DNA of 64,000 bases, taken from assembly GCA_019744845.1 (NCBI GenBank), contig JAIETW010000001.1, positions 282,176-346,175 of the forward strand. The letters are read 5' to 3'. Positions 2,014-35,037 of the stretch are shown piece by piece. Source of the DNA: Patescibacteria group bacterium. Its GTDB lineage: Bacteria > Patescibacteriota > Minisyncoccia > Phycocordibacterales > Phycocordibacteraceae. Position 1 is the first letter of the stretch. The number at the start of each line of letters is the position of its first letter. A program made the translations under genes and the position numbers. The notes below the pieces were generated by a model. The model had not been told where the DNA came from. It did no database searches and saw only the letters and a list, made by a program, of their open reading frames with translations.

Positions 2014-2670
2014 TCATTTCGCCTTGGGCCAGAGCTTCGCTGCCTTGGGCCAGAGCTTTGTAAGGGGGTGATCCTTGCAGTCATGAGGACGTGCAGGACA
2101 TACATAGCGTCCATACAAGACGAGCCCATTATTGAGGTATTTCCAGTCTTTCTTGGGCACCAGTGCCTCAAGGTCTTTTGATATCTTGGTGAGATCCGTA
2201 TTGTTTGTAAGATCAAACCGGAGCGCGAAGCGCCTTACATGCGTATCCGTTGGTATCCCCTCCCAGAGGTCATACAGCTCCCCGAGGATTACATGCGCAG
2301 TCTTGTATCCGATACCTGGAAGTGCCACCAGTTCCTGTTCAGTCTTCGGCACCTTTCCTTTATGTTTCTCTTGTATCACCTTTGCCGCAGCGGTGATGGC
2401 TTTTGCTTTGTTACGAAAGAATGAAATGGAAGAGATTTCCTTGGTAAACGTGGCGAGTGAGACAGATGCGAAGTCTTTGGGTGTTTTGTACTTCTTCCAG
2501 AGTGTGGCAGTGACCTTGTTCACCTGCTTATCCGTCGCCTGCGCAGACAGCATTACGGAGGCGACAAGCTGAAACGGTGCCTTGTACGCAAGCTCAGTTT
2601 TGGGCGCTGGATACGCTTTCTTCAAATACGCGACAATCTTCCGTGCGCGTGCCTCCCGCTCTTTATTCAT
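2014..2670 (-). CDS. Endonuclease III-like DNA glycosylase (Nth family) with only two Cys at the cluster position
   Basis: ELAYKAPFQLVASVMLSAQATDKQVN, LPGIGYKTAHVIL and DTHVRR are classical Nth motifs. Start chosen at MNKERE, directly after the upstream gene stop. The C-terminus is CPARPHDC followed by a KLWPKA repeat. Confidence 0.7.
   Translation of the reverse strand: MNKEREARARKIVAYLKKAYPAPKTELAYKAPFQLVASVMLSAQATDKQVNKVTATLWKKYKTPKDFASVSLATFTKEISSISFFRNKAKAITAAAKVIQEKHKGKVPKTEQELVALPGIGYKTAHVILGELYDLWEGIPTDTHVRRFALRFDLTNNTDLTKISKDLEALVPKKDWKYLNNGLVLYGRYVCPARPHDCKDHPLTKLWPKAAKLWPKAK
2021..2061. repeat. Two tandem copies of a 21-bp repeat (gccttgggccagagcttygc) at the 3' end of the nth-like gene
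   Basis: Direct tandem duplication seen in the sequence. It encodes the duplicated KLWPKAA heptad at the protein C-terminus. Confidence 0.6.
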
Positions 2671-2671
2671 G

Positions 2672-3814
2672 CTACGCAAGCAAATCTTCGTCTCTCGCAA
2701 ACGCAAACTTGTAGCAAGTGACGACAATCGCTCCTGCTGCGGCAGCGGTAAGCACCACAGACACCAAGAATCCAATCACCGGAATAACTCCTACCAAACG
2801 AAGCACCACCATGCCGAGTACCGCATGCTTCCACGTCACCACCGTGTGCTTAAACGTACGCATGAGGGCTGCACCGGCGAGCACGCCCGCATAGAGGTAT
2901 GCGAGAAGAAGGAGAAGGACATATGCAGCACCTATCACCAGCCCTATGCCAATACCCGCAAAAGAGATCATGAGAATAAATACCAACACCGGAGTTGCGA
3001 TCATTACCGCAAATCCAATGAGCGCGAGAAGTGAGAAACGACCGACGGACTGTGTAAGCGTACGGTCCACTATTCTTTGAGTAAAGACTGGGAAGAGTCC
3101 CGCCATAAGGCCAGAGGCAACCACGGCAGAAATAAGTCGTACGATGAAGAACACGCCGAGGCCTGCGAGCGCAAAGGTTTCTGCCTCTTCGGTGGTTGGA
3201 AGGAACGCAGAAGATCCTGTGTAGGCAACACTACCAACGGTCGCAGATGCAGGTATGTATGCCTCCTGTGGTGCGTTGTACTTAAGAGCGCCGGTGACGA
3301 CCGTTCCCTCTCCAAGTGCGAGACGGTCTGAGGCGACCACCGTCACGTCTCCTGCGTAGTTTCCTGAAAGTGTAACGGATGCTCCATAAATGATCACTGA
3401 TCCTGTCGCACCTTCGGTGATGGTGACCGTGCCTCCTGCGATTCTAATATCCCGCGCAATACCGGTGACAGTGATGGAGCCGCCGGCCGCAATCAAGTCC
3501 CCTGCGACCTCCTGTTCAATAAAGACTCTTCCTCCTGCGACACGAAGATCACCACCAATGGATTCACGAACATTCACATCTCCTCCGAGCAAGAGTGCAT
3601 CCCCTTCTACCGGAGCAGCAAGCACGAGTGTGCCGCCGAGTGCGGCAATGTCTTGAGGCACGGTCGTTGCCACCCGTACTTCTGACCCAAAGAGATAGGC
3701 ATTGTCGGAAGGTGGCTCCGCGACAATAAGTGCCTCATCCCCCGCAAAGGTACTCGCAAAGCTTGTGAATGGAAGGAGGAGTAGGAGGCTTATAACCAGT
3801 GCATTTCGTCGCAT
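2672..3814 (-). CDS. Membrane protein with N-terminal Gly-rich beta-helix-like repeats and C-terminal TM domain
   Basis: Signal peptide MRRNALVISLLLLLPFTSFA. Repeats such as GGDLRVAGGRV, AGGSITVTG and IAGGTVTITEG, then 4-5 hydrophobic helices. Start chosen to avoid overlap with the VKOR gene. Confidence 0.5.
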   Translation of the reverse strand: MRRNALVISLLLLLPFTSFASTFAGDEALIVAEPPSDNAYLFGSEVRVATTVPQDIAALGGTLVLAAPVEGDALLLGGDVNVRESIGGDLRVAGGRVFIEQEVAGDLIAAGGSITVTGIARDIRIAGGTVTITEGATGSVIIYGASVTLSGNYAGDVTVVASDRLALGEGTVVTGALKYNAPQEAYIPASATVGSVAYTGSSAFLPTTEEAETFALAGLGVFFIVRLISAVVASGLMAGLFPVFTQRIVDRTLTQSVGRFSLLALIGFAVMIATPVLVFILMISFAGIGIGLVIGAAYVLLLLLAYLYAGVLAGAALMRTFKHTVVTWKHAVLGMVVLRLVGVIPVIGFLVSVVLTAAAAGAIVVTCYKFAFARDEDLLA

Positions 3815-3819
3815 ACAAA

Positions 3820-4287
3820 TTATGGTAGCACAGCTGGTGGAAGTGGGAGAAGGCGCTTCCGATATGCAACTACGAGACCGGCAAGTATGAATGAAACCAC
3901 CGCAGACGCGAGACAATAAATACAGATTGCCTTAATCACGAATACTTGTAGGAAAAGGAAGTAGGCGGACGCAAGTGCTCCTACCACTGACGCAGCTGCT
4001 AGTCCCTTCACCGCAAGGCGAGATGAGCGAGAAAGGAGGTACACCGAAAGAAGGAGAATGACTGCATAGAAGCCAAGCCCATAGACCGCAAGCGGAATAC
4101 CGAGGAGCTTAGAATACGGGCTTGCTGCCACGGTGTTGCACTTATCAAGGCCTTCAATATCACAGACAAGAGGATCTGCAGTAAGAGCGCTATGAGCAAG
4201 ATAGGCTGAATCTGCGAAACCAATGAGAGTGAGAACGATTAGTATAGAAAGGAGAGCCTGGCGGGTCATATGTCCGCTATAGTACAC
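3820..4287 (-). CDS. Vitamin K epoxide reductase (VKOR) family thiol oxidoreductase
   Basis: Polytopic membrane protein with a loop Cys pair (CDIEGLDKC) and a CxxC in the last TM (CIYC), as in VKOR/DsbB-like proteins. Confidence 0.6.
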   Translation of the reverse strand: MYYSGHMTRQALLSILIVLTLIGFADSAYLAHSALTADPLVCDIEGLDKCNTVAASPYSKLLGIPLAVYGLGFYAVILLLSVYLLSRSSRLAVKGLAAASVVGALASAYFLFLQVFVIKAICIYCLASAVVSFILAGLVVAYRKRLLPLPPAVLP

Positions 4288-4294
4288 TATTCGT

Positions 4295-4690
4295 ATGAAC
4301 CCTGATGTTGAGAGCGAGAAGTGGCGAGAGAAGCTTACTGATGAGGAATATCGTGTTCTGCGGGAACAAGGGACCGAGGCACCTTTCTCAGGTGAATTCG
4401 TGAATCATCACGAAAGCGGTATGTATCGCTGCAAGGCCTGTGGTACCGAACTCTTTTCTTCAGACGCGAAGTTTGACTCGGGTACAGGCTGGCCGTCATT
4501 CACCGATCCTGCAGTCGCAGAGAATGTCGGCACCCGCCCTGATGACTCCTACGGCATGCATCGCACCGAAGTGTATTGTAAGAAATGTGGAGGACACCTT
4601 GGTCACGTATTTAATGATGGTCCTGCAGAACAAGGTGGAAAACGATACTGCATTAACTCAGTGTGTCTTGAGTTTGAGAAGCAAGACTAA
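4295..4690 (+). CDS. msrB: Peptide methionine-R-sulfoxide reductase MsrB
   Basis: RCKACGTELF...GWPSF...CKKCGGHLGHVF..RYCINS. Both zinc CxxC pairs and the catalytic Cys are present. Confidence 0.9.
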   Translation: MNPDVESEKWREKLTDEEYRVLREQGTEAPFSGEFVNHHESGMYRCKACGTELFSSDAKFDSGTGWPSFTDPAVAENVGTRPDDSYGMHRTEVYCKKCGGHLGHVFNDGPAEQGGKRYCINSVCLEFEKQD

Positions 4691-5154
4691 ATGTGACAAA
4701 CCGCGTTCGGGTGCTTTTCAAAATACCTCTGGTGATATTCCTCTGCTTTGTAGAACGGAGTGACAGCAGTAATTTCAGTCGCAATCGTCTTCGGATGGAA
4801 TGAGGGCTGAAGTTCTTTTTTCAATTGCTCAGCGATCTCTTTCTGTTCTTCATTGAGATAAAAGATACCTGAACGATACTGGCTTCCTACATCCGGTCCC
4901 TGACGATTGAGCTGCGTAGGATCGTGCACTGCAAAAAACTTTCGTACAAGCGCTTCATACGTAACCTGTGCTGGATCAAACGTCACGCGCACTGCTTCTG
5001 CATGCCCCGTTTTGTCAGTACACACCTGCTCGTACGTAGGATTCTCCGTATGTCCACCAATGTAGCCTGACTCTGCATCAGTCACTCCAGGAACCTGGAG
5101 AAACGCGTACTCCACGCCCCAGAAGCATCCCGCTGCAAATATTGCTTGATTCAT
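4687..5154 (-). CDS. msrA: Peptide methionine-S-sulfoxide reductase MsrA
   Basis: GCFWG active-site motif directly after MNQAIFAA. Stop codon overlaps the msrB stop (convergent). Start could also be at 5178. Confidence 0.9.
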   Translation of the reverse strand: MNQAIFAAGCFWGVEYAFLQVPGVTDAESGYIGGHTENPTYEQVCTDKTGHAEAVRVTFDPAQVTYEALVRKFFAVHDPTQLNRQGPDVGSQYRSGIFYLNEEQKEIAEQLKKELQPSFHPKTIATEITAVTPFYKAEEYHQRYFEKHPNAVCHI

Positions 5155-5216
5155 GTGGTTAGTATACAGAACACTCATCTAATCGCGATTTTCTCAACAC
5201 TGAATCAAAATGCAGT

Positions 5217-5639
5217 CTAGGACGCGAACCTGTTCGTTCCTCCCCTCTCCCGCTCGTTAATCGGGTGCTCATCTAGGCCAAAGTAGTGCCCCACCTCATG
5301 CCATATAGTCTCTCGTATAACCTGACGCACATACTCCCGAAACTGACTGGTATGGTCGTCAGTAAGTTCCTCAGCCTCTGCAAGGATAGGGAGACGAAAA
5401 AGCGTAATAGTGTCAGGGAGCGTACCGCCCACCCCATACTCACTCCCCCGCTCCGTATTCGGAACGCCGTGATACACCCCAAGTAGGGTCTCTCCCTCTT
5501 GTAACCCTTCTTCTGTACGAAGTGCTGCGCTCGGCTCATCCTCAATCAAAAGCGCGACATTCTGTACGAGTGCCGCAAATCGTTCAGGCACCGATTGCCA
5601 CTCAGAGAGTGCGATTGCCTCAAATTCATCCTGTTCCAT
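5217..5639 (-). CDS. Zincin-like metallopeptidase family protein (COG3824/DUF1025-like)
   Basis: HEVGHYFGL (HExxH) near the C-terminus. Small acidic protein. Confidence 0.5.
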   Translation of the reverse strand: MEQDEFEAIALSEWQSVPERFAALVQNVALLIEDEPSAALRTEEGLQEGETLLGVYHGVPNTERGSEYGVGGTLPDTITLFRLPILAEAEELTDDHTSQFREYVRQVIRETIWHEVGHYFGLDEHPINERERGGTNRFAS

Positions 5640-5662
5640 AGTTGAGATAGTATACTAGCGCG

Positions 5663-6298
5663 ATGGATATTCCCTTCCTCCACGTCACCCTTCCCGAACT
5701 CATACAGATGGTCGGGTATGTGGGCGTATTTGTGATCGTTTTCATAGAGTCCGGCGTACCGATTGGCATCGTCCTCCCACTTCCAGGAGACACCCTTCTC
5801 TTCTCCGCAGGTATCCTCGCCGCCACTCAAGCGTTTGAACTCGTACCCCTTATCGCCACTATTGTCGTCGCCGCAATACTTGGCGACAGTGCAGGCTACT
5901 GGTTTGGCTCACACTACGGCCCAAAGCTTTTTACGAAAGATAATGCGCTCATTCTTAACAAACGATATCTAGAAAAGACTGAGAAGTTCTATCAAAAGTA
6001 CGGACGCATGGCGCTCATTGTCGCGCGGTTCCTTCCCGTCTTCCGTACACTCGTGCCGATCATGGCTGGCATGGGCAGCATGAAGTACCGCACCTTCCTC
6101 GCCTTCAATATTGCCGGGGCCCTTATCTGGGGTATCTCTCTTACCATGCTCGGCTATTTCCTCGGGAACATGATCCCGAACATTGATACCTACGTGCTTC
6201 CTGTCCTTATCCTTGTGATCATCATCACTACTTTTTCTGGCTTCCGCGAAGTCTGGAAGGCGCGGAAAGAAATGCAGAATGAAAAAACCGCCCCCTAG
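5663..6298 (+). CDS. DedA family membrane protein
   Basis: GDTLLF motif, polytopic, VARFLPVFRT. Typical DedA/SNARE-associated layout. Confidence 0.8.
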   Translation: MDIPFLHVTLPELIQMVGYVGVFVIVFIESGVPIGIVLPLPGDTLLFSAGILAATQAFELVPLIATIVVAAILGDSAGYWFGSHYGPKLFTKDNALILNKRYLEKTEKFYQKYGRMALIVARFLPVFRTLVPIMAGMGSMKYRTFLAFNIAGALIWGISLTMLGYFLGNMIPNIDTYVLPVLILVIIITTFSGFREVWKARKEMQNEKTAP

Positions 6299-6326
6299 TG
6301 GAGCGGTTTTTCGTTGAGGAGAAGGA

Positions 6327-7019
6327 TTAGAGCTCAGCCTCCACGAGTGGCTTTACCACTGTGTATGGCTGCGCGCCGGCAACAAGACTGGTGCCAATGA
6401 TAGAACCTGGCGTACCGTTGATACCGAAGGTAGCGCCTTCGTCACGACTTGCACTGATAATGGTCGTGTACTCTCCTCCCTTCTCAGTGATGAGAGTAGC
6501 AACACGTGCCGTATCAATACCAAGTCCTGCGGCAGTTGCATCAAGCGCGGCACGAGAAAGAGTGTTCTCTCCTTCACCGGTCATGACCGCGTCAAACCAG
6601 GTGCCCCACTTATCAGGAGCTGCCTCCCATACGGCGTGTGAGTAGATAGCAGTATCAAGAGATGCCTGACCAAGGAACTGGAAGTCCTTGTAGACAATCT
6701 TCACTTTTCCACTGTCAACGAACTCTGCCTTAAGATCCTTAAGAGTGGTTGACTCAAAGCGCTTACAGAAGCTGCACTGGTAATCAAACCACACTGCAAC
6801 AGTCACTGGAGCGTCCTCATCTCCGATGAATGGAGTTCCTTCCGTCTTCACATCCTTGATATCAACTGCCGCAGCAGGAGCTCCCGCCTCATCCCCTGTC
6901 TTCGGTGCTGAAGGATTACCAAAGTAAATTGCCCCTGCAATGATGATGAGACCGAGAAGGAGCGCGACTGCAGTGCCGTTCTTCTCAATGAAGGTCCCTC
7001 CGTTCGTAGAATCTGCCAT
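6327..7019 (-). CDS. DsbA-like thiol:disulfide oxidoreductase (membrane-anchored)
   Basis: N-terminal TM anchor, then a thioredoxin fold with WFDYQCSFCKRF (CxxC). Confidence 0.7.
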   Translation of the reverse strand: MADSTNGGTFIEKNGTAVALLLGLIIIAGAIYFGNPSAPKTGDEAGAPAAAVDIKDVKTEGTPFIGDEDAPVTVAVWFDYQCSFCKRFESTTLKDLKAEFVDSGKVKIVYKDFQFLGQASLDTAIYSHAVWEAAPDKWGTWFDAVMTGEGENTLSRAALDATAAGLGIDTARVATLITEKGGEYTTIISASRDEGATFGINGTPGSIIGTSLVAGAQPYTVVKPLVEAEL

Positions 7020-7093
7020 AGATAAAAGTTATGCCAAAAAACCTGATATGCCACATAGCATACCAGGCTTCGGCATCCTGCCAAGTACGGGGA

Positions 7094-8483
7094 TTATGAG
7101 ACGAAGGTAAGGGCTTTCCCGACCTTCCCGGCACGGCCTGTACGGCCAATGCGGTGGGTGTAGTCCTCGTAGGACTGCGGAAGGTCATAGTTAATGACGT
7201 GGGACACGCCACTAATATCAAGACCACGCGCAGCCACATCAGTCGCCACAAGCACCTTCACATGATCACGCTTGAAGAGTGCGAGAGCCTGCTGGCGCTT
7301 GCCGTGCGTCTTATCGCCGTGAATAGATTCAGCCGCGATGCCACTACGAACAAGGTCACGTGCAAGACGCTCCACCCCGTGCTTCGTACGTCCGAAGACA
7401 AGCACCTTGTCAAAGGCAGGATCAGACAGAAGCTCTACCAACCGCTCAAACTTCTGTGACGGAGAGACACGGATCACATCCTGATCAATCGTTGCCGCCG
7501 TATCACGCGTCTTCACGGATACGTGTACTGGATCGTTAAGGAAGTCACCAATCAAGCGCTCAATATCACGGCTCATCGTTGCAGAGAAGAAGAGCGTGTG
7601 ACGATTCTTCGGCATGTGGCTCAAGATAAAGCGCATGTCATCAATGAAACCCATATCAAGCATGCGGTCTGCTTCATCAAGTACCACGGTCTGGAATGCA
7701 GAAAGATTAAGCTTCTTGCGGTCCATAAGGTCCTTCAAGCGTCCTGGCGTACCAATGACGAAGGCAGGGTCACGAGACAGTGCACGAATCTGCGGCACAA
7801 TGTTTGCGCCGCCGACACAGGTCACTGACGCAAGGCGAAGCATCTTCGCAAAGCCCCAGAACTCGTTCTCAATCTGAAGTGCAAGCTCACGCGTCGGCAC
7901 CATCACGAGAATACGATTCTCACGATTGGCGATTACCTTCTCAATAAGTGGAATGAGAAAGGCGCCCGTCTTTCCAGTACCCGTGTTTGCAAGTCCGACC
8001 ACGTCACGACCCATAAGGATGTGCGGAATAGCCTGATCCTGAATCGGCGTTGGAGTGGTGTAGCCTTTACCAATAATGTTGTCTTTAAGCTGCTCGCTGA
8101 TCGGAAGATCAATGAATGCAGTCTGAGGAACGTAGGCAACGACGTCTTCCTGAGGAGTGGCTTTGTTAATAAGCTTTGACATATCAAAGCTTGGTTCGGA
8201 GCGACCACGGCGAGAGCCACCACGGCTTCCACCACGAGGACCTCCACGTGAGGGACCTCCTGGACCACGACGGTTTCCCCCTCCGCCTCGGTATGAGGAA
8301 GAAGAGTGTTCTTTAAGGTCATAGCTAGACGCAGTGACTGGAGGCTTCCAGCCTTCCTGTGCAAAACGCATACCTGCTTCAAACGCAGGCGTGCGTACAG
8401 GACCACGGCGATGAGCGCCTGGACGTCCTCCTACCTTGGGGCGGTGACGTGCACCTCCCTTATTATCTGAATTTTTGTTCATA
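7094..8483 (-). CDS. DEAD-box ATP-dependent RNA helicase with N-terminal RGG/Gly-Arg-rich low-complexity region
   Basis: AxTGTGKT, DEAD (VLDEADRMLD), SAT and HRIGRTGR motifs. Start set at MNKNSDNKGG. The first ~110 aa are RGG/GPRGG-rich. Confidence 0.85.
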
Positions 8484-29506: not shown

Positions 29507-29881
29507 CTACTCTCCGGGACACGGAGCAAATTCACAGTTCGGGCCACTGCGTCCCACCCCTGTTCCGTCAGGACATATCTTGGCGTCCGCGGGACACGCC
29601 ATCGGTTCTTGTGGTGTGGGTCGTGAGATTGGCGTCTGGTCAATTTCGTTCTCCTCAGGAATCTCCCGGATAAAGAGCTGCCCGTCAGGGGTGCGACACT
29701 GCTCGGGGTATGACTCCATCACTGGGTACCCCGCAGCCGCACATTCTTCAAAAGAATCAATCATTTCTTGAGTGGTCGTTTGCACTCCATGATCATAGCC
29801 GAACAAGTACCCCATACCCGCGCCAAGAATAAGGGCAAAGAGAAGTGCGACTAAAATTGAAAATACGAGTGTGTTGTTCAT
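29507..29881 (-). CDS. Hypothetical exported protein with C-terminal Cys-rich segment
   Basis: N-terminal TM or signal. C-terminal CPADAKICPDG...CEFAPCPGE. Confidence 0.35.
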   Translation of the reverse strand: MNNTLVFSILVALLFALILGAGMGYLFGYDHGVQTTTQEMIDSFEECAAAGYPVMESYPEQCRTPDGQLFIREIPEENEIDQTPISRPTPQEPMACPADAKICPDGTGVGRSGPNCEFAPCPGE

Positions 29882-29884
29882 GGG

Positions 29885-30298
29885 TTAGCTTGTGCGAATC
29901 TTCTTTCCCTCTTTGCCCCATTCAGTAAACCGCCACCACGTTGGAGAAAACGTGAAGAAAATCACATTCTCTCCCTGTGCCTTTGCCACCTTTTCCGGAA
30001 ACTTCGCGAGGTATGTGGCTTTAAGTGTCTCATCATTGGTAAGAGAGACCACTCCATCTAGCTGAAGTGTCTCCGTCTTCCCTTCTACAGTGCCCACCAC
30101 CACGGACGCACGAGAGGTCTCGCGTCCAAAAAGAGGCTCACTCTTCCGATATGTTTTGTCAGTCTCAAAAATAAAACAGAAAGGATCTTCGGCAGTTGCA
30201 AAATGGACCGTAGACGCATGAGGAGATCCGTCCATCATCTCCACTGCAACGACACAGGTTCGCTCCCCCTTTAAATACTCACGTATGTCCTGATCCAT
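29885..30298 (-). CDS. Pyridoxamine 5'-phosphate oxidase-like FMN-binding split-barrel protein
   Basis: Size and pattern (TCVVAV..DGSPHASTVHFA...) fit the PPOX/general-stress-26 family. Confidence 0.55.
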   Translation of the reverse strand: MDQDIREYLKGERTCVVAVEMMDGSPHASTVHFATAEDPFCFIFETDKTYRKSEPLFGRETSRASVVVGTVEGKTETLQLDGVVSLTNDETLKATYLAKFPEKVAKAQGENVIFFTFSPTWWRFTEWGKEGKKIRTS

Positions 30299-30307
30299 AT
30301 CCCAATA

Positions 30308-30607
30308 TTACACTGTTCGTGACCGAAGGACGCAGCGTGCCGTTACTTGCACACCTTCTTCAAGAGCTTCTGCCTTGCGTACCGCTGCCTTTATAGGAAG
30401 AAGGTACGGACCTTCTTTACTGGGGAATATGCTCGTGTCCCAGGTACTGGTGCCGATCGTGGCGCGAACAGGAACCGATCCCCACCCAAGTCGTCGCTTT
30501 TCTTGTGCTTTTATCTGTACTCCCTGTGCCTTGGTCGTAGAAAGGAAATACCAAGCCGCAGTTCCTTGGTATTTCCAGAGTGTTCCTTCAATCACCACTT
30601 CTTTCAT
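30308..30607 (-). CDS. DUF1905 domain protein
   Basis: WKYQGTAAWYFLS...GWGSVPVRATIGTSTWDTSIFPSKEGPYLLPIKAAVRKAEALEEGVQV matches the DUF1905 consensus. Start at MKEVV gives the typical ~100 aa. Confidence 0.6.
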   Translation of the reverse strand: MKEVVIEGTLWKYQGTAAWYFLSTTKAQGVQIKAQEKRRLGWGSVPVRATIGTSTWDTSIFPSKEGPYLLPIKAAVRKAEALEEGVQVTARCVLRSRTV

Positions 30608-30649
30608 ATGCGTAGAGGAGTATACCAAGTGATGGTATTCTTCCCTCAT

Positions 30650-31495
30650 ATGGCACACAAAGACGGACTGCGACCAGGCGACAGCTTTGCTCCTGAGGAA
30701 TGGAATTACCACGAAAGCACGGAGCTTCCCCCTAATTCTTCTTTGGGAGAAGTGTTCAAATTCGCCCACGGTCTGACCAAAGAACGTAACGAACGTAGAT
30801 TCCCTACTCCTCTTCACCGTACCAGCCACCTTGTTGACGGTGGAGGGGAGGTGCTTGATGCACTGCGTGTAGAAAACAAAGAGATCCTCCGTAAAGTCGG
30901 TGCAAAAGTTGCAATGCGTATTTTCAATGTGCTTCAGGGACTTGGCGAGCGCGACACTGCACTTATTGATGCGGTCATAGAGAAGTATTACTTCTACTCT
31001 GCGGACACACCTGAGGGTGGGTGTTGCTATTGTGGAGAGAAACCATGTGTCTGTGGTCTTGATAAGCCAAAGAAAGAACTAGTACGTGCAGACATGCCTC
31101 AAGAGGTGCGTGAGAAACTCGCGTCATGGACCTTCACTGACTGGCAGCGATACTTTGATGAACTCTACGGTGCGAACAACCGTGCACGTGGACTTACCCT
31201 AACCGCCGATCGGTTGACCTCTGAAATCATAGAGGCAAATACTGCGAGTCTCCGCATGAGCACCGCAATCTCTCCTGAACATGTAGACGCACAGAGGAAA
31301 GCACTGCTCCTTGAGCTTGCAGATTCATTTGCCTGGCTTGCGGGCCTCTACAACGTGCTTGGCACTTCCTTTGAGAACGCGCCAAAGCTAGACGATGAAT
31401 TTATTGCCATCTATGGTAACGGCTGCCCTAACTGCAAAAAGTTCCCGTGTGTCTGTGGCGCATTTGGCTATGTCGCTGATCGTAAGCAGAAGTAA
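30650..31495 (+). CDS. Tandemly duplicated MazG-like nucleotide pyrophosphohydrolase, each half ending in a Cys4 motif
   Basis: Two homologous halves. The second has an EIIEA...ELADSFAWL MazG-type motif. Each ends in CCYCGEKPCVCG / CPNCKKFPCVCG. Start inferred at MAHKDG, back-to-back with the DUF1905 gene. Confidence 0.5.
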   Translation: MAHKDGLRPGDSFAPEEWNYHESTELPPNSSLGEVFKFAHGLTKERNERRFPTPLHRTSHLVDGGGEVLDALRVENKEILRKVGAKVAMRIFNVLQGLGERDTALIDAVIEKYYFYSADTPEGGCCYCGEKPCVCGLDKPKKELVRADMPQEVREKLASWTFTDWQRYFDELYGANNRARGLTLTADRLTSEIIEANTASLRMSTAISPEHVDAQRKALLLELADSFAWLAGLYNVLGTSFENAPKLDDEFIAIYGNGCPNCKKFPCVCGAFGYVADRKQK

Positions 31496-32122
31496 CTACT
31501 TCTCATCAATCCACTTCACACCGCTCCGCTCAAACTGACGTTTTAAATCCTCTTTTACCGCATCAAGAAAATCCTTGAGTTCAGGGAAATGGTGTGTTGC
31601 CTCATCAAAGGCGTCTACTGCCTTATTGGCATAGTCCGCATGGAACTCCTTCGGGATGTACATCTGCACCTCCCCTTCGGCGATGTGGAGGAACCCTTCA
31701 ATCTTGTCCAGCGCTTTAATAAACTTCGCCTCAGTCGTTTCCTGCGCTTCGTATTCCTTCCATAGGGTATAAATGCGATCTCCAAACGAAATATCTCCTG
31801 TCATTTCGCGCATCGTACTTTCTTCCTCCTGTTCTTTTGCTTGTAAGACTTGATTCCCTCCCTGTATCTGCGTGTACGCGTCTACATCCCCCGAGCGCGC
31901 TTCGCCAAGATCATGAATGAGTGCAAGTGCCAGCGCATGGCTCATATCCACCTGTATGTTGCATTCAGATCCTATGACGTAGGCCATGAGTCCAAGGCGC
32001 CATGAGTGTTCAGCAACGGTGTTACGACCCCCTCGGAGTGAGGAGCTATAGCGCTCTTTGGATTCAAGTGCCTTACTTCTATGTAAGAAGGTGAGGATGT
32101 CACGTACTTGGGTTCGTTGCAT
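31496..32122 (-). CDS. HD-domain phosphohydrolase (YfbR-like 5'-deoxynucleotidase family)
   Basis: VAEHSWRL...ALIHDLGEARSGD, an H..HD..D metal-binding pattern. Confidence 0.75.
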   Translation of the reverse strand: MQRTQVRDILTFLHRSKALESKERYSSSLRGGRNTVAEHSWRLGLMAYVIGSECNIQVDMSHALALALIHDLGEARSGDVDAYTQIQGGNQVLQAKEQEEESTMREMTGDISFGDRIYTLWKEYEAQETTEAKFIKALDKIEGFLHIAEGEVQMYIPKEFHADYANKAVDAFDEATHHFPELKDFLDAVKEDLKRQFERSGVKWIDEK

Positions 32123-32145
32123 ACGGTCGGATAAGTATAACCTTG

Positions 32146-32173
32146 CTGGCTGTCTTGGACGATGTGGGAACCC
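32146..32173. repeat. Copy B of the ~24-bp motif (ggctgtcttggacgatgtgggaaccc)
   Basis: Direct repeat of copy C. Together they flank the low-GC gene 32185..32730. Confidence 0.5.
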
Positions 32174-32184
32174 TTCTGGATTCT

Positions 32185-32730
32185 TTATATTCCTGAATAC
32201 TCGCTGCTTAACCGGGTCGTTGAACCTGTGCGCACATCAAGGTTCCACTTTTCAAAGACACCTCCCCCGCCATCTCCACTGGAAGCGGTGAAGAATACCG
32301 TGTTTTCATCTATAAAGCGCAAGCTATCAGGATCAATTCCCGGACCTCCCGTGTAAGAACCAATGTATTCAATAGAAGGAGTATATGCCCACGTAGACTC
32401 AAGGAAGAAATAGCACGTTGGCGGTCCATAAGGGCCACATGAAGAATCATTTATTCCCCGCTCAACTACCACATACAGTCCATCATAATGATGGGTGGTG
32501 GTTGAGAATTCTGAAACAAATTGGTTTCTTACAATACTAACGACTTTAAATTTAGAACTTTCATATAACTCAGGAGTTGAGAAGCCACTTACTGCCTCAG
32601 CATTCAAAGAAACTTCTGGCGAGGTATTTGAGCTTAAGTCTCTATTTTTTGTATAAACAATAAAAATAACAACACTGACTACAATTACTAGAACGATACC
32701 CACTCCAATTCGTCCTATTTTTGTATTCAT
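32185..32730 (-). CDS. Hypothetical membrane-anchored protein in a low-GC insert
   Basis: N-terminal TM. Visibly AT-richer than the flanks. Bounded by direct copies of the 24-bp motif. Confidence 0.4.
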   Translation of the reverse strand: MNTKIGRIGVGIVLVIVVSVVIFIVYTKNRDLSSNTSPEVSLNAEAVSGFSTPELYESSKFKVVSIVRNQFVSEFSTTTHHYDGLYVVVERGINDSSCGPYGPPTCYFFLESTWAYTPSIEYIGSYTGGPGIDPDSLRFIDENTVFFTASSGDGGGGVFEKWNLDVRTGSTTRLSSEYSGI

Positions 32731-32756
32731 ACAGTAAACATACTATCACCAAGTGC

Positions 32757-32785
32757 TGACTGTCTTGGACGATGTTGGAACCAGA
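32757..32785. repeat. Copy C of the ~24-bp motif (gactgtcttggacgatgttggaaccag)
   Basis: See copies A and B. Confidence 0.5.
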
Positions 32786-33214
32786 TTATGCTGCTGGTCT
32801 TTCCCCCAAATCCTGGTAGAAGCGTAGCAGATATCCATCTGGGTCTTGCACCCAGAACTGTCTGTTCCCTCCCTCTGTTGCGCCAGTCCTATACCACTTA
32901 TCTTCCATCTCACTAAAAATTGGATAGGCGTTGTCTTTGAAATTCGTGTACAGAGCCTCAACGTCTTCAACTTCTATCTGAAAGTGCATTCCTCGGCCTA
33001 GTGGATATTCCAACGCTCCGACCTGCATAGTGCGGCTTTTCTCTGTAAGAGATTCAATCATGACCCACGCCCTCCCTTTACTGAGCATCGCAAACTCTTC
33101 TTCTGGTCGTTGGTATTCAACGTCAAACTGAGCGAGTTTCGTATAAAACTCACGACTCTTATTGAAGTCAGTGACTTTCAACTCAGGAATGAGTGCGGGC
33201 GACTTTCTTTCCAT
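32786..33214 (-). CDS. VOC-family (glyoxalase/bleomycin-resistance-like) protein
   Basis: Paired beta-alpha-beta-beta-beta modules. MHFQIEVEDVEAL is typical of the family. Confidence 0.6.
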   Translation of the reverse strand: MERKSPALIPELKVTDFNKSREFYTKLAQFDVEYQRPEEEFAMLSKGRAWVMIESLTEKSRTMQVGALEYPLGRGMHFQIEVEDVEALYTNFKDNAYPIFSEMEDKWYRTGATEGGNRQFWVQDPDGYLLRFYQDLGERPAA

Positions 33215-33854: not shown

Positions 33855-33946
33855 GTATCCAGAGCGCGACGAGGGATCTGGCCCTTTGACTCGCCGGCAA
33901 CCTGTAAAAATACAAGGTGCCTCCAGCCCCGTATGGGGGACGATAC
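33855..33946 (+). promoter_or_regulatory. SAM-I (S-box) riboswitch in the metK leader
   Basis: GUAUCCAGAGCGCGACGAGGGAUCUGGCCCUUUGACUCGCCGGCAACC...GGUGCCUCCAGC...GAUAC matches the S-box consensus (AUCaAGAG.GG.GGAGGGA.UGGCCC.AUGA..CCGGCAACC...GGUGC.A.UCCAGC). A P1 helix GUAUC/GAUAC closes it. Confidence 0.65.
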
Positions 33947-33956
33947 CTACTATCTA

Positions 33957-33990
33957 TCATCCCGCATACGCGGGATTTGCGTTTATGTTT
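33957..33990 (+). terminator. Putative riboswitch expression-platform terminator (atcccgc-ata-gcgggat + U-tract)
   Basis: Hairpin followed by tttgcgtttatgttt. The U-tract runs into the metK start codon, so the exact mechanism is uncertain. Confidence 0.35.
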
Positions 33991-35037
33991 CATCTACTTA
34001 CCCACTACACCACCGAAAGCGTGACGCGAGGGCACCCTGACAAAGTCTGTGACCAGATCTCAGATGCTATTCTTGATGCCTGCCTCGCTGAGGATCCACA
34101 GTCCCGTGTCGCGGTAGAAACGTTCGGGAGCCATGGCACTTTAATGATCGGGGGTGAAATCACCACAAACGCAAAACCAAATTGCGAGGCAATTGCTCGT
34201 AAAGTATATGAAGACATCGGGTACACCGAGGAGCTGGATATCCTCTCTCGTGTCGTCTCTCAGTCTCCTGATATTGCGATGGGAGTAGATACGGGTGGTG
34301 CCGGTGATCAAGGCATCATGTATGGATACGCTACTGATGAAACTCCTGAGTATCTTCCGAAAGGAGTGGTGCTTGCGCACGCACTTGCACGAAGGCTTGA
34401 GAAACTCCGTACGGATGGCACCCTCCCCTATTTGCGCCCTGATGGGAAAACCCAGGTGACAATCAAAGAGGGACAAGTAGTGACCGCGCTCACCTCTACT
34501 CAACATGCAGAGGAGGCAGATCTCAAAGATATTGAGCGCGATCTTAAAGAACATCTCTTCACTCCCGTACTTGGAAGTCTTGAGGGTATAGAAATACTGG
34601 TGAATCCTACAGGACGTTTTGTACAGGGAGGCTTTGAAGCAGATGCCGGACTCACGGGGCGCAAGATCATGGTGGATACCTACGGTGGCCTCATCCCCCA
34701 CGGTGGAGGCTGTTTCTCTGGGAAAGACTCAACAAAAGTGGACCGTTCTGCAGCATACATGTGCCGTTTCGTGGCAAAGAACTTGGTCGCAAACGGCTAC
34801 GCAAAGAAAGCATTGGTTTCCGTCGCGTACGCCATCGGACGCGTAGAGCCCGTGATGGTGGAAGCCTTCGGTGACGATGGAAAGAATCTCACCGACATTG
34901 TGACCAAGAACTTTGACTTCCGTCCACGAGAAATAGAAAAGCGCCTCCAACTACGTCGCCCTATCTTCCAAGAAACCGCAGCGTATGGACACTTCGGTGT
35001 AGACGGACGCCCCTGGGAAGCAGTAGAAAAGATCTAA
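33985..35037 (+). CDS. metK: S-adenosylmethionine synthetase
   Basis: ESVTRGHPDKVCDQISDAILDA, GAGDQGIMYGYA, TGRKIMVDTYGG and DRSAAY are all MetK signatures. Start at MFHLL. Confidence 0.92.
   Translation: MFHLLTHYTTESVTRGHPDKVCDQISDAILDACLAEDPQSRVAVETFGSHGTLMIGGEITTNAKPNCEAIARKVYEDIGYTEELDILSRVVSQSPDIAMGVDTGGAGDQGIMYGYATDETPEYLPKGVVLAHALARRLEKLRTDGTLPYLRPDGKTQVTIKEGQVVTALTSTQHAEEADLKDIERDLKEHLFTPVLGSLEGIEILVNPTGRFVQGGFEADAGLTGRKIMVDTYGGLIPHGGGCFSGKDSTKVDRSAAYMCRFVAKNLVANGYAKKALVSVAYAIGRVEPVMVEAFGDDGKNLTDIVTKNFDFRPREIEKRLQLRRPIFQETAAYGHFGVDGRPWEAVEKI

Follow-up and report, generated by a model that had tools for sequence, protein, structure and literature searches.

A tandem MazG-like protein of Patescibacteria with one degenerate repeat, one apparently catalytic repeat and two conserved four-cysteine loops

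The stretch of DNA analysed here (hereafter, the window) comprises 64,000 nucleotides of contig JAIETW010000001.1 of a Patescibacteria group bacterium (assembly GCA_019744845.1), and its gene of interest encodes a 281-residue protein that is 100% identical to NCBI K2Y00_01745, a "hypothetical protein" of the same source name. The gene converges on one for an HD-domain phosphohydrolase, and the two stop codons adjoin, with zero intergenic bases, as an earlier reading of the letters made without database searches (the sequence-only reading) had stated (Table 1). As judged from profile comparisons, the 281-residue protein is a tandem duplication of a MazG module similar to SSO3215, a module that already bore a C-x2-C-x4-C-x-C tail at the time it was duplicated.

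Table 1. Coordinates, in the window, of the gene for the tandem MazG-like protein, its component elements and the convergent neighbour
Feature	Coordinates	Strand	Basis or remark
Tandem MazG-like protein gene, 281 aa	30650..31495 (including stop)	+	Open reading frame and sequence; AlphaFold2 model
N-terminal extension, aa 1-27	30650..30730	+	Closest relatives only; probably disordered
N-terminal degenerate (pseudo-)MazG repeat, aa 28-124	30731..31021	+	hhalign against C-half; catalytic equivalents lost
Cys cluster 1, C125-x2-C128-x4-C133-x-C135, probable Zn site	31022..31054	+	Conservation
C-terminal MazG repeat, putatively catalytic, aa 156-258	31115..31423	+	
E192-x2-E195, first half of MazG metal-binding motif	31223..31234	+	Aligned to EEvGE of 1vmg
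E222-x2-D225 (ELAD), second half of MazG metal-binding motif, then W229	31313..31324	+	Aligned to EELAD of 1vmg
Cys cluster 2, C259-x2-C262-x4-C267-x-C269, probable Zn site	31424..31456	+	Conservation
HD-domain phosphohydrolase (HD_3, HDDC2/YfbR-like 5'-deoxynucleotidase type), convergent	31496..32122	-	Pfam, PDB

The reading frame is intact, with an ATG start at 30650, 281 codons and a TAA stop at 31493-31495. A longer frame with a TTG start (30347-31495, 382 aa) was rejected, given that it overlaps a divergent DUF1905 gene and that the homologues begin at the position equivalent to the ATG. The N-terminal extension is limited, in the family alignment, to P0001-P0005 and P0011-12, and its residues 1-17 have a predicted local distance difference test score (pLDDT) below 50 in the AlphaFold2 model. 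No model of Pfam, NCBIfam (both tested to E <= 1), PADLOC or PHROGs matches the 281-residue protein and, consequently, any label as a defense system or a phage family was dropped. In positions 29800-32800, a scan for promoters and terminators gave no signal beyond that expected from shuffled sequence, and it placed no terminator between the two convergent genes.

The sequence-only reading had proposed that the protein consists of two homologous halves. The similarity is weak when single sequences are compared by BLASTP, half against half (E 3e-4, with the Cys region alone aligned), but becomes unequivocal at the level of profiles. Conservation throughout this work refers to 151 full-length members of the family, which represent clusters at 50% identity; in this set, hhalign aligns the profiles of the N-half and the C-half over 94 columns with a probability of 99.3% and an E-value of 2.6e-20. 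The tandem duplication is therefore real.

The identity of the duplicated module emerges from structure-based databases. The family profile matches the MazG pyrophosphohydrolase SSO3215 (PDB 1vmg) with an E-value of 8e-9, and a profile of the C-half only recovers 1vmg at E 5.8e-13, followed by 5ie9, iMazG, YpjD and the RS21-C6/DCTPP1 dCTP pyrophosphatases. The AlphaFold2 model, computed from a 12-sequence alignment, is all-helical and confident (pLDDT 87.5, predicted template modelling score, pTM, 0.86); the predicted fold is the four-helix bundle of the MazG enzymes, which belong to the all-alpha NTP pyrophosphohydrolase superfamily, and overall it resembles the dimeric dUTPase 1w2y across 150 residues. 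A Foldseek run with the model was uninformative. The link to MazG is thus made by the family profile compared with PDB, together with stand-alone PF03819 proteins that the C-half profile retrieves and that are described below.

In characterised MazG enzymes, the acidic residues of the signature E-x2-E...E-x2-D bind the catalytic Mg2+ or Mn2+. The C-half has this signature, in the segments EIIEA (aa 192-196) and ELADSFAWL (aa 222-230): E192 and E195 are kept in 150 of the 151 members, E222 and D225 in 149, and W229 in 145. The MazG-type NTP-pyrophosphohydrolase motif that had been claimed for the second half is accordingly present, and the sequence profile and the predicted fold agree with it. 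The N-half lacks the signature, a point that was absent from the earlier reading. Across the family, the equivalent of E192 is A or G, that of E195 is D or E (in about 60%), that of E222 is A, and that of D225 is R, S or K, and because three of the four acidic metal ligands are thus replaced by small or basic residues, the N-half appears to be a catalytically degenerate copy. It has conserved residues of its own, namely, R46, N47, R57, R73, R90 and K112, the last in 98% of the members. By sequence and predicted fold, then, the protein is a member of the MazG superfamily, and its fold, catalytic motif and probable chemistry are all of known type.

The family is sizeable. Word-indexed searches returned 7 and then 11 family proteins, and an exhaustive hidden Markov model (HMM) search over 1.84 billion cluster representatives yielded 1421 matches at E <= 1e-3, 802 at E <= 1e-10 and 211 at E <= 1e-30, which puts the family at no fewer than 211 clusters (50% identity) at the strictest of these thresholds; the top 150 matches are almost all full-length, at 230-260 aa. 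The genome matches come almost exclusively from Patescibacteria (Saccharibacteria, Paceibacterota, Parcubacteria, Shapirobacteria, Roizmanbacteria and Levyibacteriota), and only a few family-bearing metagenome-assembled genomes (MAGs) are labelled otherwise. The sole other member with a source name, P0006, is likewise a "hypothetical protein". Among viruses, a scan of IMG/VR found no contig with relatives, and INPHARED gave one match only, in a Vibrio inovirus.

Two members with additional regions stand out. In the filamentous Vibrio phage 10N.286.54.E11_PE002A (PQ189347.1, Tubulavirales), a 330-aa protein (L051:2360-3352, plus strand; family HMM 96 bits, positions 7-236) combines the tandem of pseudo-MazG-Cys and MazG-Cys with a C-terminal extension of ~90 residues. 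In a Pirellulaceae MAG (CAZUAH010000071.1, L025:4098-5810, plus strand), a Ser/Thr protein kinase is fused to a full-length tandem MazG-Cys4 in a protein of 570 aa, with an N-terminal CxxC...CxxC segment, a Pkinase match at E 3e-40 and a family HMM score of 105 bits; here the first Cys site is changed to C-x2-C-x4-C-x2-HH, and a thymidylate kinase fragment lies just downstream.

The origin of the architecture can be approached through the stand-alone proteins. With E-values around 1e-19, the C-half profile retrieves MazG proteins of ~96-120 aa (P0161-P0187) that match PF03819, derive from sources in distant phyla (Planctomycetaceae, Candidatus Caldarchaeum and metagenomes) and end in a KYGNGCPxCxxxPCxCG(xxEKP) tail; the source names of several are nucleotide pyrophosphohydrolase or NTP pyrophosphatase. 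They share with the window protein the module of MazG plus C-x2-C-x4-C-x-C, but have one repeat and are presumably homodimers with two active sites. The presence of the same Cys tail on these proteins implies that the MazG-Cys4 unit predates the duplication, and they probably stand near the ancestor from which the tandem arose. Their closest solved relative is again 1vmg (E 4e-17), that is, SSO3215 of Sulfolobus solfataricus (PF03819), which consists of about 83 residues, stands alone without a tandem repeat or a pseudo-domain and has as its last residues the ...KY immediately in front of the Cys loop; in no solved structure matching the C-half and stand-alone profiles does the alignment extend over this loop. 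A literature search found nothing that describes the tandem MazG-Cys4 architecture or the Cys tail of the stand-alone proteins, and no characterisation of the latter came to light.

Among known systems, tandem MazG domains are the classical layout of Escherichia coli MazG (PDB 3cra; NCBIfam PRK09562). This enzyme is, however, of a different MazG subtype and lacks Cys loops, and PRK09562, which models the E. coli-type two-domain MazG, does not match the window protein at E <= 1; the duplication described here is, therefore, independent of that in E. coli MazG. The dimeric all-alpha dUTPases (PDB 1w2y, 2yay, 5myd) differ in their conserved motifs, lack Cys loops and show no sequence-profile match. 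The eukaryotic DCTPP1/RS21-C6 (PDB 2oie, 6sqw), to which the C-half profile matches at E 1e-4, is of MazG type and acts on (modified) dCTP, but is homotetrameric, with one MazG domain per chain and no Cys loop. The architecture, which the sequence-only reading had not recognised, is less unusual than it supposed: the MazG-Cys4 unit already exists on its own and tandem MazG is known. The family as such is missed by every Pfam and NCBIfam model. What is new is an unannotated family, mostly from Patescibacteria, in which an active repeat, as predicted, is paired with a dead one and an invariant Cys4 loop is doubled.

Each of the two loops is a compact cluster. The first, CCYCGEKPCVCG (aa 125-136), includes an additional, non-conserved cysteine, C126, and the second is CPNCKKFPCVCG (aa 259-270). 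In the MAFFT alignment of the family, C125, C128, C133 and C135 are conserved in 100% of the members, and C259, C262, C267 and C269 in 96-99%; with all eight positions at 96-100% across the 151 representatives, the motifs are not a chance occurrence, and the check on their conservation that the earlier reading had set comes out in its favour. By contrast, the zinc-ribbon element that it had envisaged does not fit. In zinc ribbons, the two CxxC knuckles sit on different beta-hairpins and are as a rule 10 or more residues apart, whereas here the four cysteines fall within 11 residues and the model contains no beta-hairpins: DSSP assigns no strands of three or more residues in the Cys region, in which cluster 1 is modelled with a pLDDT of about 83-91. 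A short loop or knuckle with four cysteines is the better description of the predicted element, which is similar to known short Cys4 loops of structural type. Most likely, each loop binds one structural Zn2+, a role that is favoured by the tolerance of His and the variable loop length: four members have His in place of C259 (HxxC-x4-CxC), and further variants of the second site have CxxC for CxC or a loop longer by 5-9 residues. A disulfide role for the cysteines was rejected by inference, given that the protein has no signal peptide and is presumably cytoplasmic.

The genomic context of the relatives, surveyed over about 29 independent synteny groups, bears on function. The thymidylate kinase gene tmk is a neighbour in five independent groups (L021, L022, L025, L026 and L046), and in two of these, L022 and L026, it immediately precedes the family gene, its stop codon overlapping or adjoining the start. 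In L022, the family gene sits between tmk and thyX in a compact thymidylate cluster, dcd-dut-tmk-family gene-thyX (3090-7535, plus strand), and L026 has a cluster of thyX, dcd and tmk followed by the family gene (2424-5687); thyX is also found in L028. In L002, ndk lies 19 nt upstream of the family gene, and pyrF is on the downstream side in L036/L045 and L047 and, weakly, in L037. L035 has a nucleoside 2-deoxyribosyltransferase gene as a neighbour, L018, L027 and L038 have AlkD genes, and L013 has dnaE. None of tmk, thyX, dcd, dut and ndk occurs within the 64 kb of the window. The proposal of a role in nucleotide metabolism made in the sequence-only reading is thus backed by the neighbourhoods of relatives, whereas the module coupled to the HD protein that went with it finds no support beyond the window and one close homologue.

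Two features of these neighbourhoods deserve mention in their own right. The ThyX proteins of L022 and L028 are about 600 aa long and contain two Thy1 stretches. A canonical small MazG gene directly follows the family gene in a Roizmanbacteria lineage (L017:532-924 and L032:4744-5136, both plus strand; PF03819, E 8e-7), and after it comes a gene for an AlkD-like DNA alkylation repair protein, which puts two MazG-type enzymes of different kinds beside a DNA glycosylase.

Taken together, these observations make it likely, in our judgement, that the protein is a single-chain, pseudo-dimeric MazG-type pyrophosphohydrolase of (deoxy)nucleoside triphosphates, (d)NTPs, that functions in pyrimidine deoxynucleotide metabolism and carries two structural Zn(Cys)4 loops. 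The two repeats would pack against each other as the subunits do in a canonical MazG dimer, with a single active site as the result; the high pTM indicates that the mutual packing of the halves is confidently predicted, and we infer a fused pseudo-dimer. The carboxylates of the C-terminal repeat would hold the Mg2+ or Mn2+ ions, the dead N-terminal repeat would stand in for the second subunit, with its Arg and Lys residues helping to bind the triphosphate or the base, and a Zn(Cys)4 loop would stabilise the end of each repeat. The predicted reaction is hydrolysis of the bond linking the alpha and beta phosphates of a (d)NTP, yielding the monophosphate, (d)NMP, and pyrophosphate. To judge from the neighbourhoods of the relatives, the substrate would most probably be a pyrimidine dNTP, canonical or damaged, and the enzyme would serve to shape or clean up the dNTP pool for thymidylate synthesis and DNA replication in these bacteria with reduced genomes. 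In the lineage of the window, the dNMP so formed could be passed to the adjacent HD nucleotidase for dephosphorylation.

Several findings weigh against this interpretation. The Pfam MazG model PF03819 does not match the 281-residue protein even at E <= 1 and reaches only E 0.0035, on 2 of 12 relatives. In about half of the synteny groups, the neighbours are unrelated (among them FtsA, alanine racemase, GT28, radical SAM, Fic and a histidine kinase). Finally, L022 already encodes a trimeric dUTPase, which makes a plain dUTPase role of the family protein redundant in that genome.

The last of these findings is also relevant to a narrower assignment that we regard as possible but doubtful, namely, that the protein is a biosynthetic dUTPase or dCTPase that supplies dUMP or dCMP for ThyX-dependent thymidylate synthesis, rather than a house-cleaning enzyme for damaged nucleotides, and that it perhaps replaces trimeric Dut in many Patescibacteria. 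Such an enzyme would be at home directly after tmk, in what is apparently the same operon, and beside thyX and dcd, as in L022 and L026, and both the similarity of the predicted fold to the dimeric dUTPase 1w2y and the match of the C-half profile to DCTPP1/RS21-C6 are in line with it. However, Dcd and trimeric Dut are both already present in L022, none of the dimeric-dUTPase Pfam models matches the protein, and the AlkD and dnaE neighbours suit sanitation in the service of DNA integrity equally well.

The convergent HD gene invites another explanation, under which the MazG-like enzyme and an HD 5'-deoxynucleotidase would have co-evolved as a dedicated two-gene catabolic module converting dNTP to dNMP and then to deoxynucleoside. 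The two steps are chemically compatible, and the HD protein is of the HD_3/HDDC2/YfbR-like nucleotidase group. Its matches to the Pfam models HD_3 (E 6.4e-30, 104.7 bits against a cut-off of 22.5) and YfbR-like (E 2.4e-10, 40.9 bits against 25.9) exceed the thresholds, in agreement with the earlier identification of a YfbR-like HD phosphohydrolase, and HDDC2-type nucleotidases are the closest in PDB (3kh1 and HDDC2 4dmb at about E 1e-14; HDDC2 E 8.6e-14). Against the NCBIfam YfbR equivalog PRK03826, it scores 22.9 bits, below the cut-off of 122; by these profiles, it is of the same broad family as E. coli YfbR, yet no YfbR equivalog. The abutting stops are retained in a homologue with 82% identity, L010, but convergent genes imply separate transcripts, and the adjacency is missing in the 57%-identical relatives L006, L011 and L012 and in all other synteny groups (about 27). 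Moreover, tblastn with the HD protein gave a match only in L029, which is the same contig as L010. The pairing that the sequence-only reading had put forward as a module is, therefore, not conserved as one, and we consider this explanation improbable.

It seems similarly improbable that the Cys clusters have a functional rather than a structural part to play, as a redox or metal switch, as an Fe-S or Cu cluster, or as nucleic-acid-binding zinc knuckles that gate the activity or tether the enzyme. The cysteines are conserved above most core residues, the module persists in the stand-alone MazG proteins of distant phyla, and the spacing of the first three ligands, C-x2-C-x4-[C/H], is that of the retroviral CCHC knuckle. 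On the other hand, His at the first ligand, CxxC in place of CxC and the insertions of 5 to 9 residues are typical of structural Zn, and the loop is devoid of conserved aromatic or basic residues of the kind found in nucleic-acid knuckles. A more far-reaching version, to which we attach only a slender probability, would have the Cys4 loops gate the protein through metal or redox state, or tether it to nucleic acid, and make it a dNTP pyrophosphatase in control of the supply of pyrimidine dNTPs in Patescibacteria, or else would place it in a pathway of Tmk and ThyX homologues for a modified pyrimidine nucleotide in these bacteria; if either were true, the members in the Vibrio phage and in the kinase fusion would suggest that the module is used in regulation. 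Least plausible of all is a non-catalytic nucleotide-binding or regulatory protein that has merely retained the MazG fold: one half is already a pseudo-domain and the kinase fusion in L025 hints at signalling, but the 98-99% conservation of the four carboxylates in the C-half is hard to explain without catalysis.

Further genes lie around the MazG-like gene in the window. Upstream, a divergent DUF1905 gene (30311-30625, minus strand) has its start 24 bp from that of the MazG-like gene, and a consensus scan found no sigma-70-like promoter in this gap. It is followed, on the same strand, by a gene for a PNPOx-like protein (pyridoxamine 5'-phosphate oxidase fold; 29885-30298) and by one for a 124-aa protein (29507-29881) with an N-terminal hydrophobic segment and a Cys/Pro-rich C-terminus (CPADAKICPDGTGVGRSGPNCEFAPCPGE). 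Beyond the HD gene, the reading frame at 33886-35037 (plus strand) contains GHPDKVCDQISDAILDA, which we recognised by eye and take to be that of an S-adenosylmethionine synthetase (MetK); the TTG start listed for it is probably too far upstream.

The significance of these findings is in annotation and in a lead for enzymology; no known principle is overturned. A sizeable protein family that public annotation had left blank is now placed in the MazG superfamily, and a previously undescribed, probably Zn-binding C-terminal extension of MazG, present in distant phyla, is brought to attention. The pairing of an active repeat, as predicted, with a dead one, in conjunction with the links to tmk, thyX, dcd, dut, ndk and pyrF, translates into a concrete and testable function. 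Patescibacteria are believed to rely largely on nucleotide salvage, and the proposed function would touch on nucleotide economy, a central matter in the host-dependent life of these ultra-small organisms.

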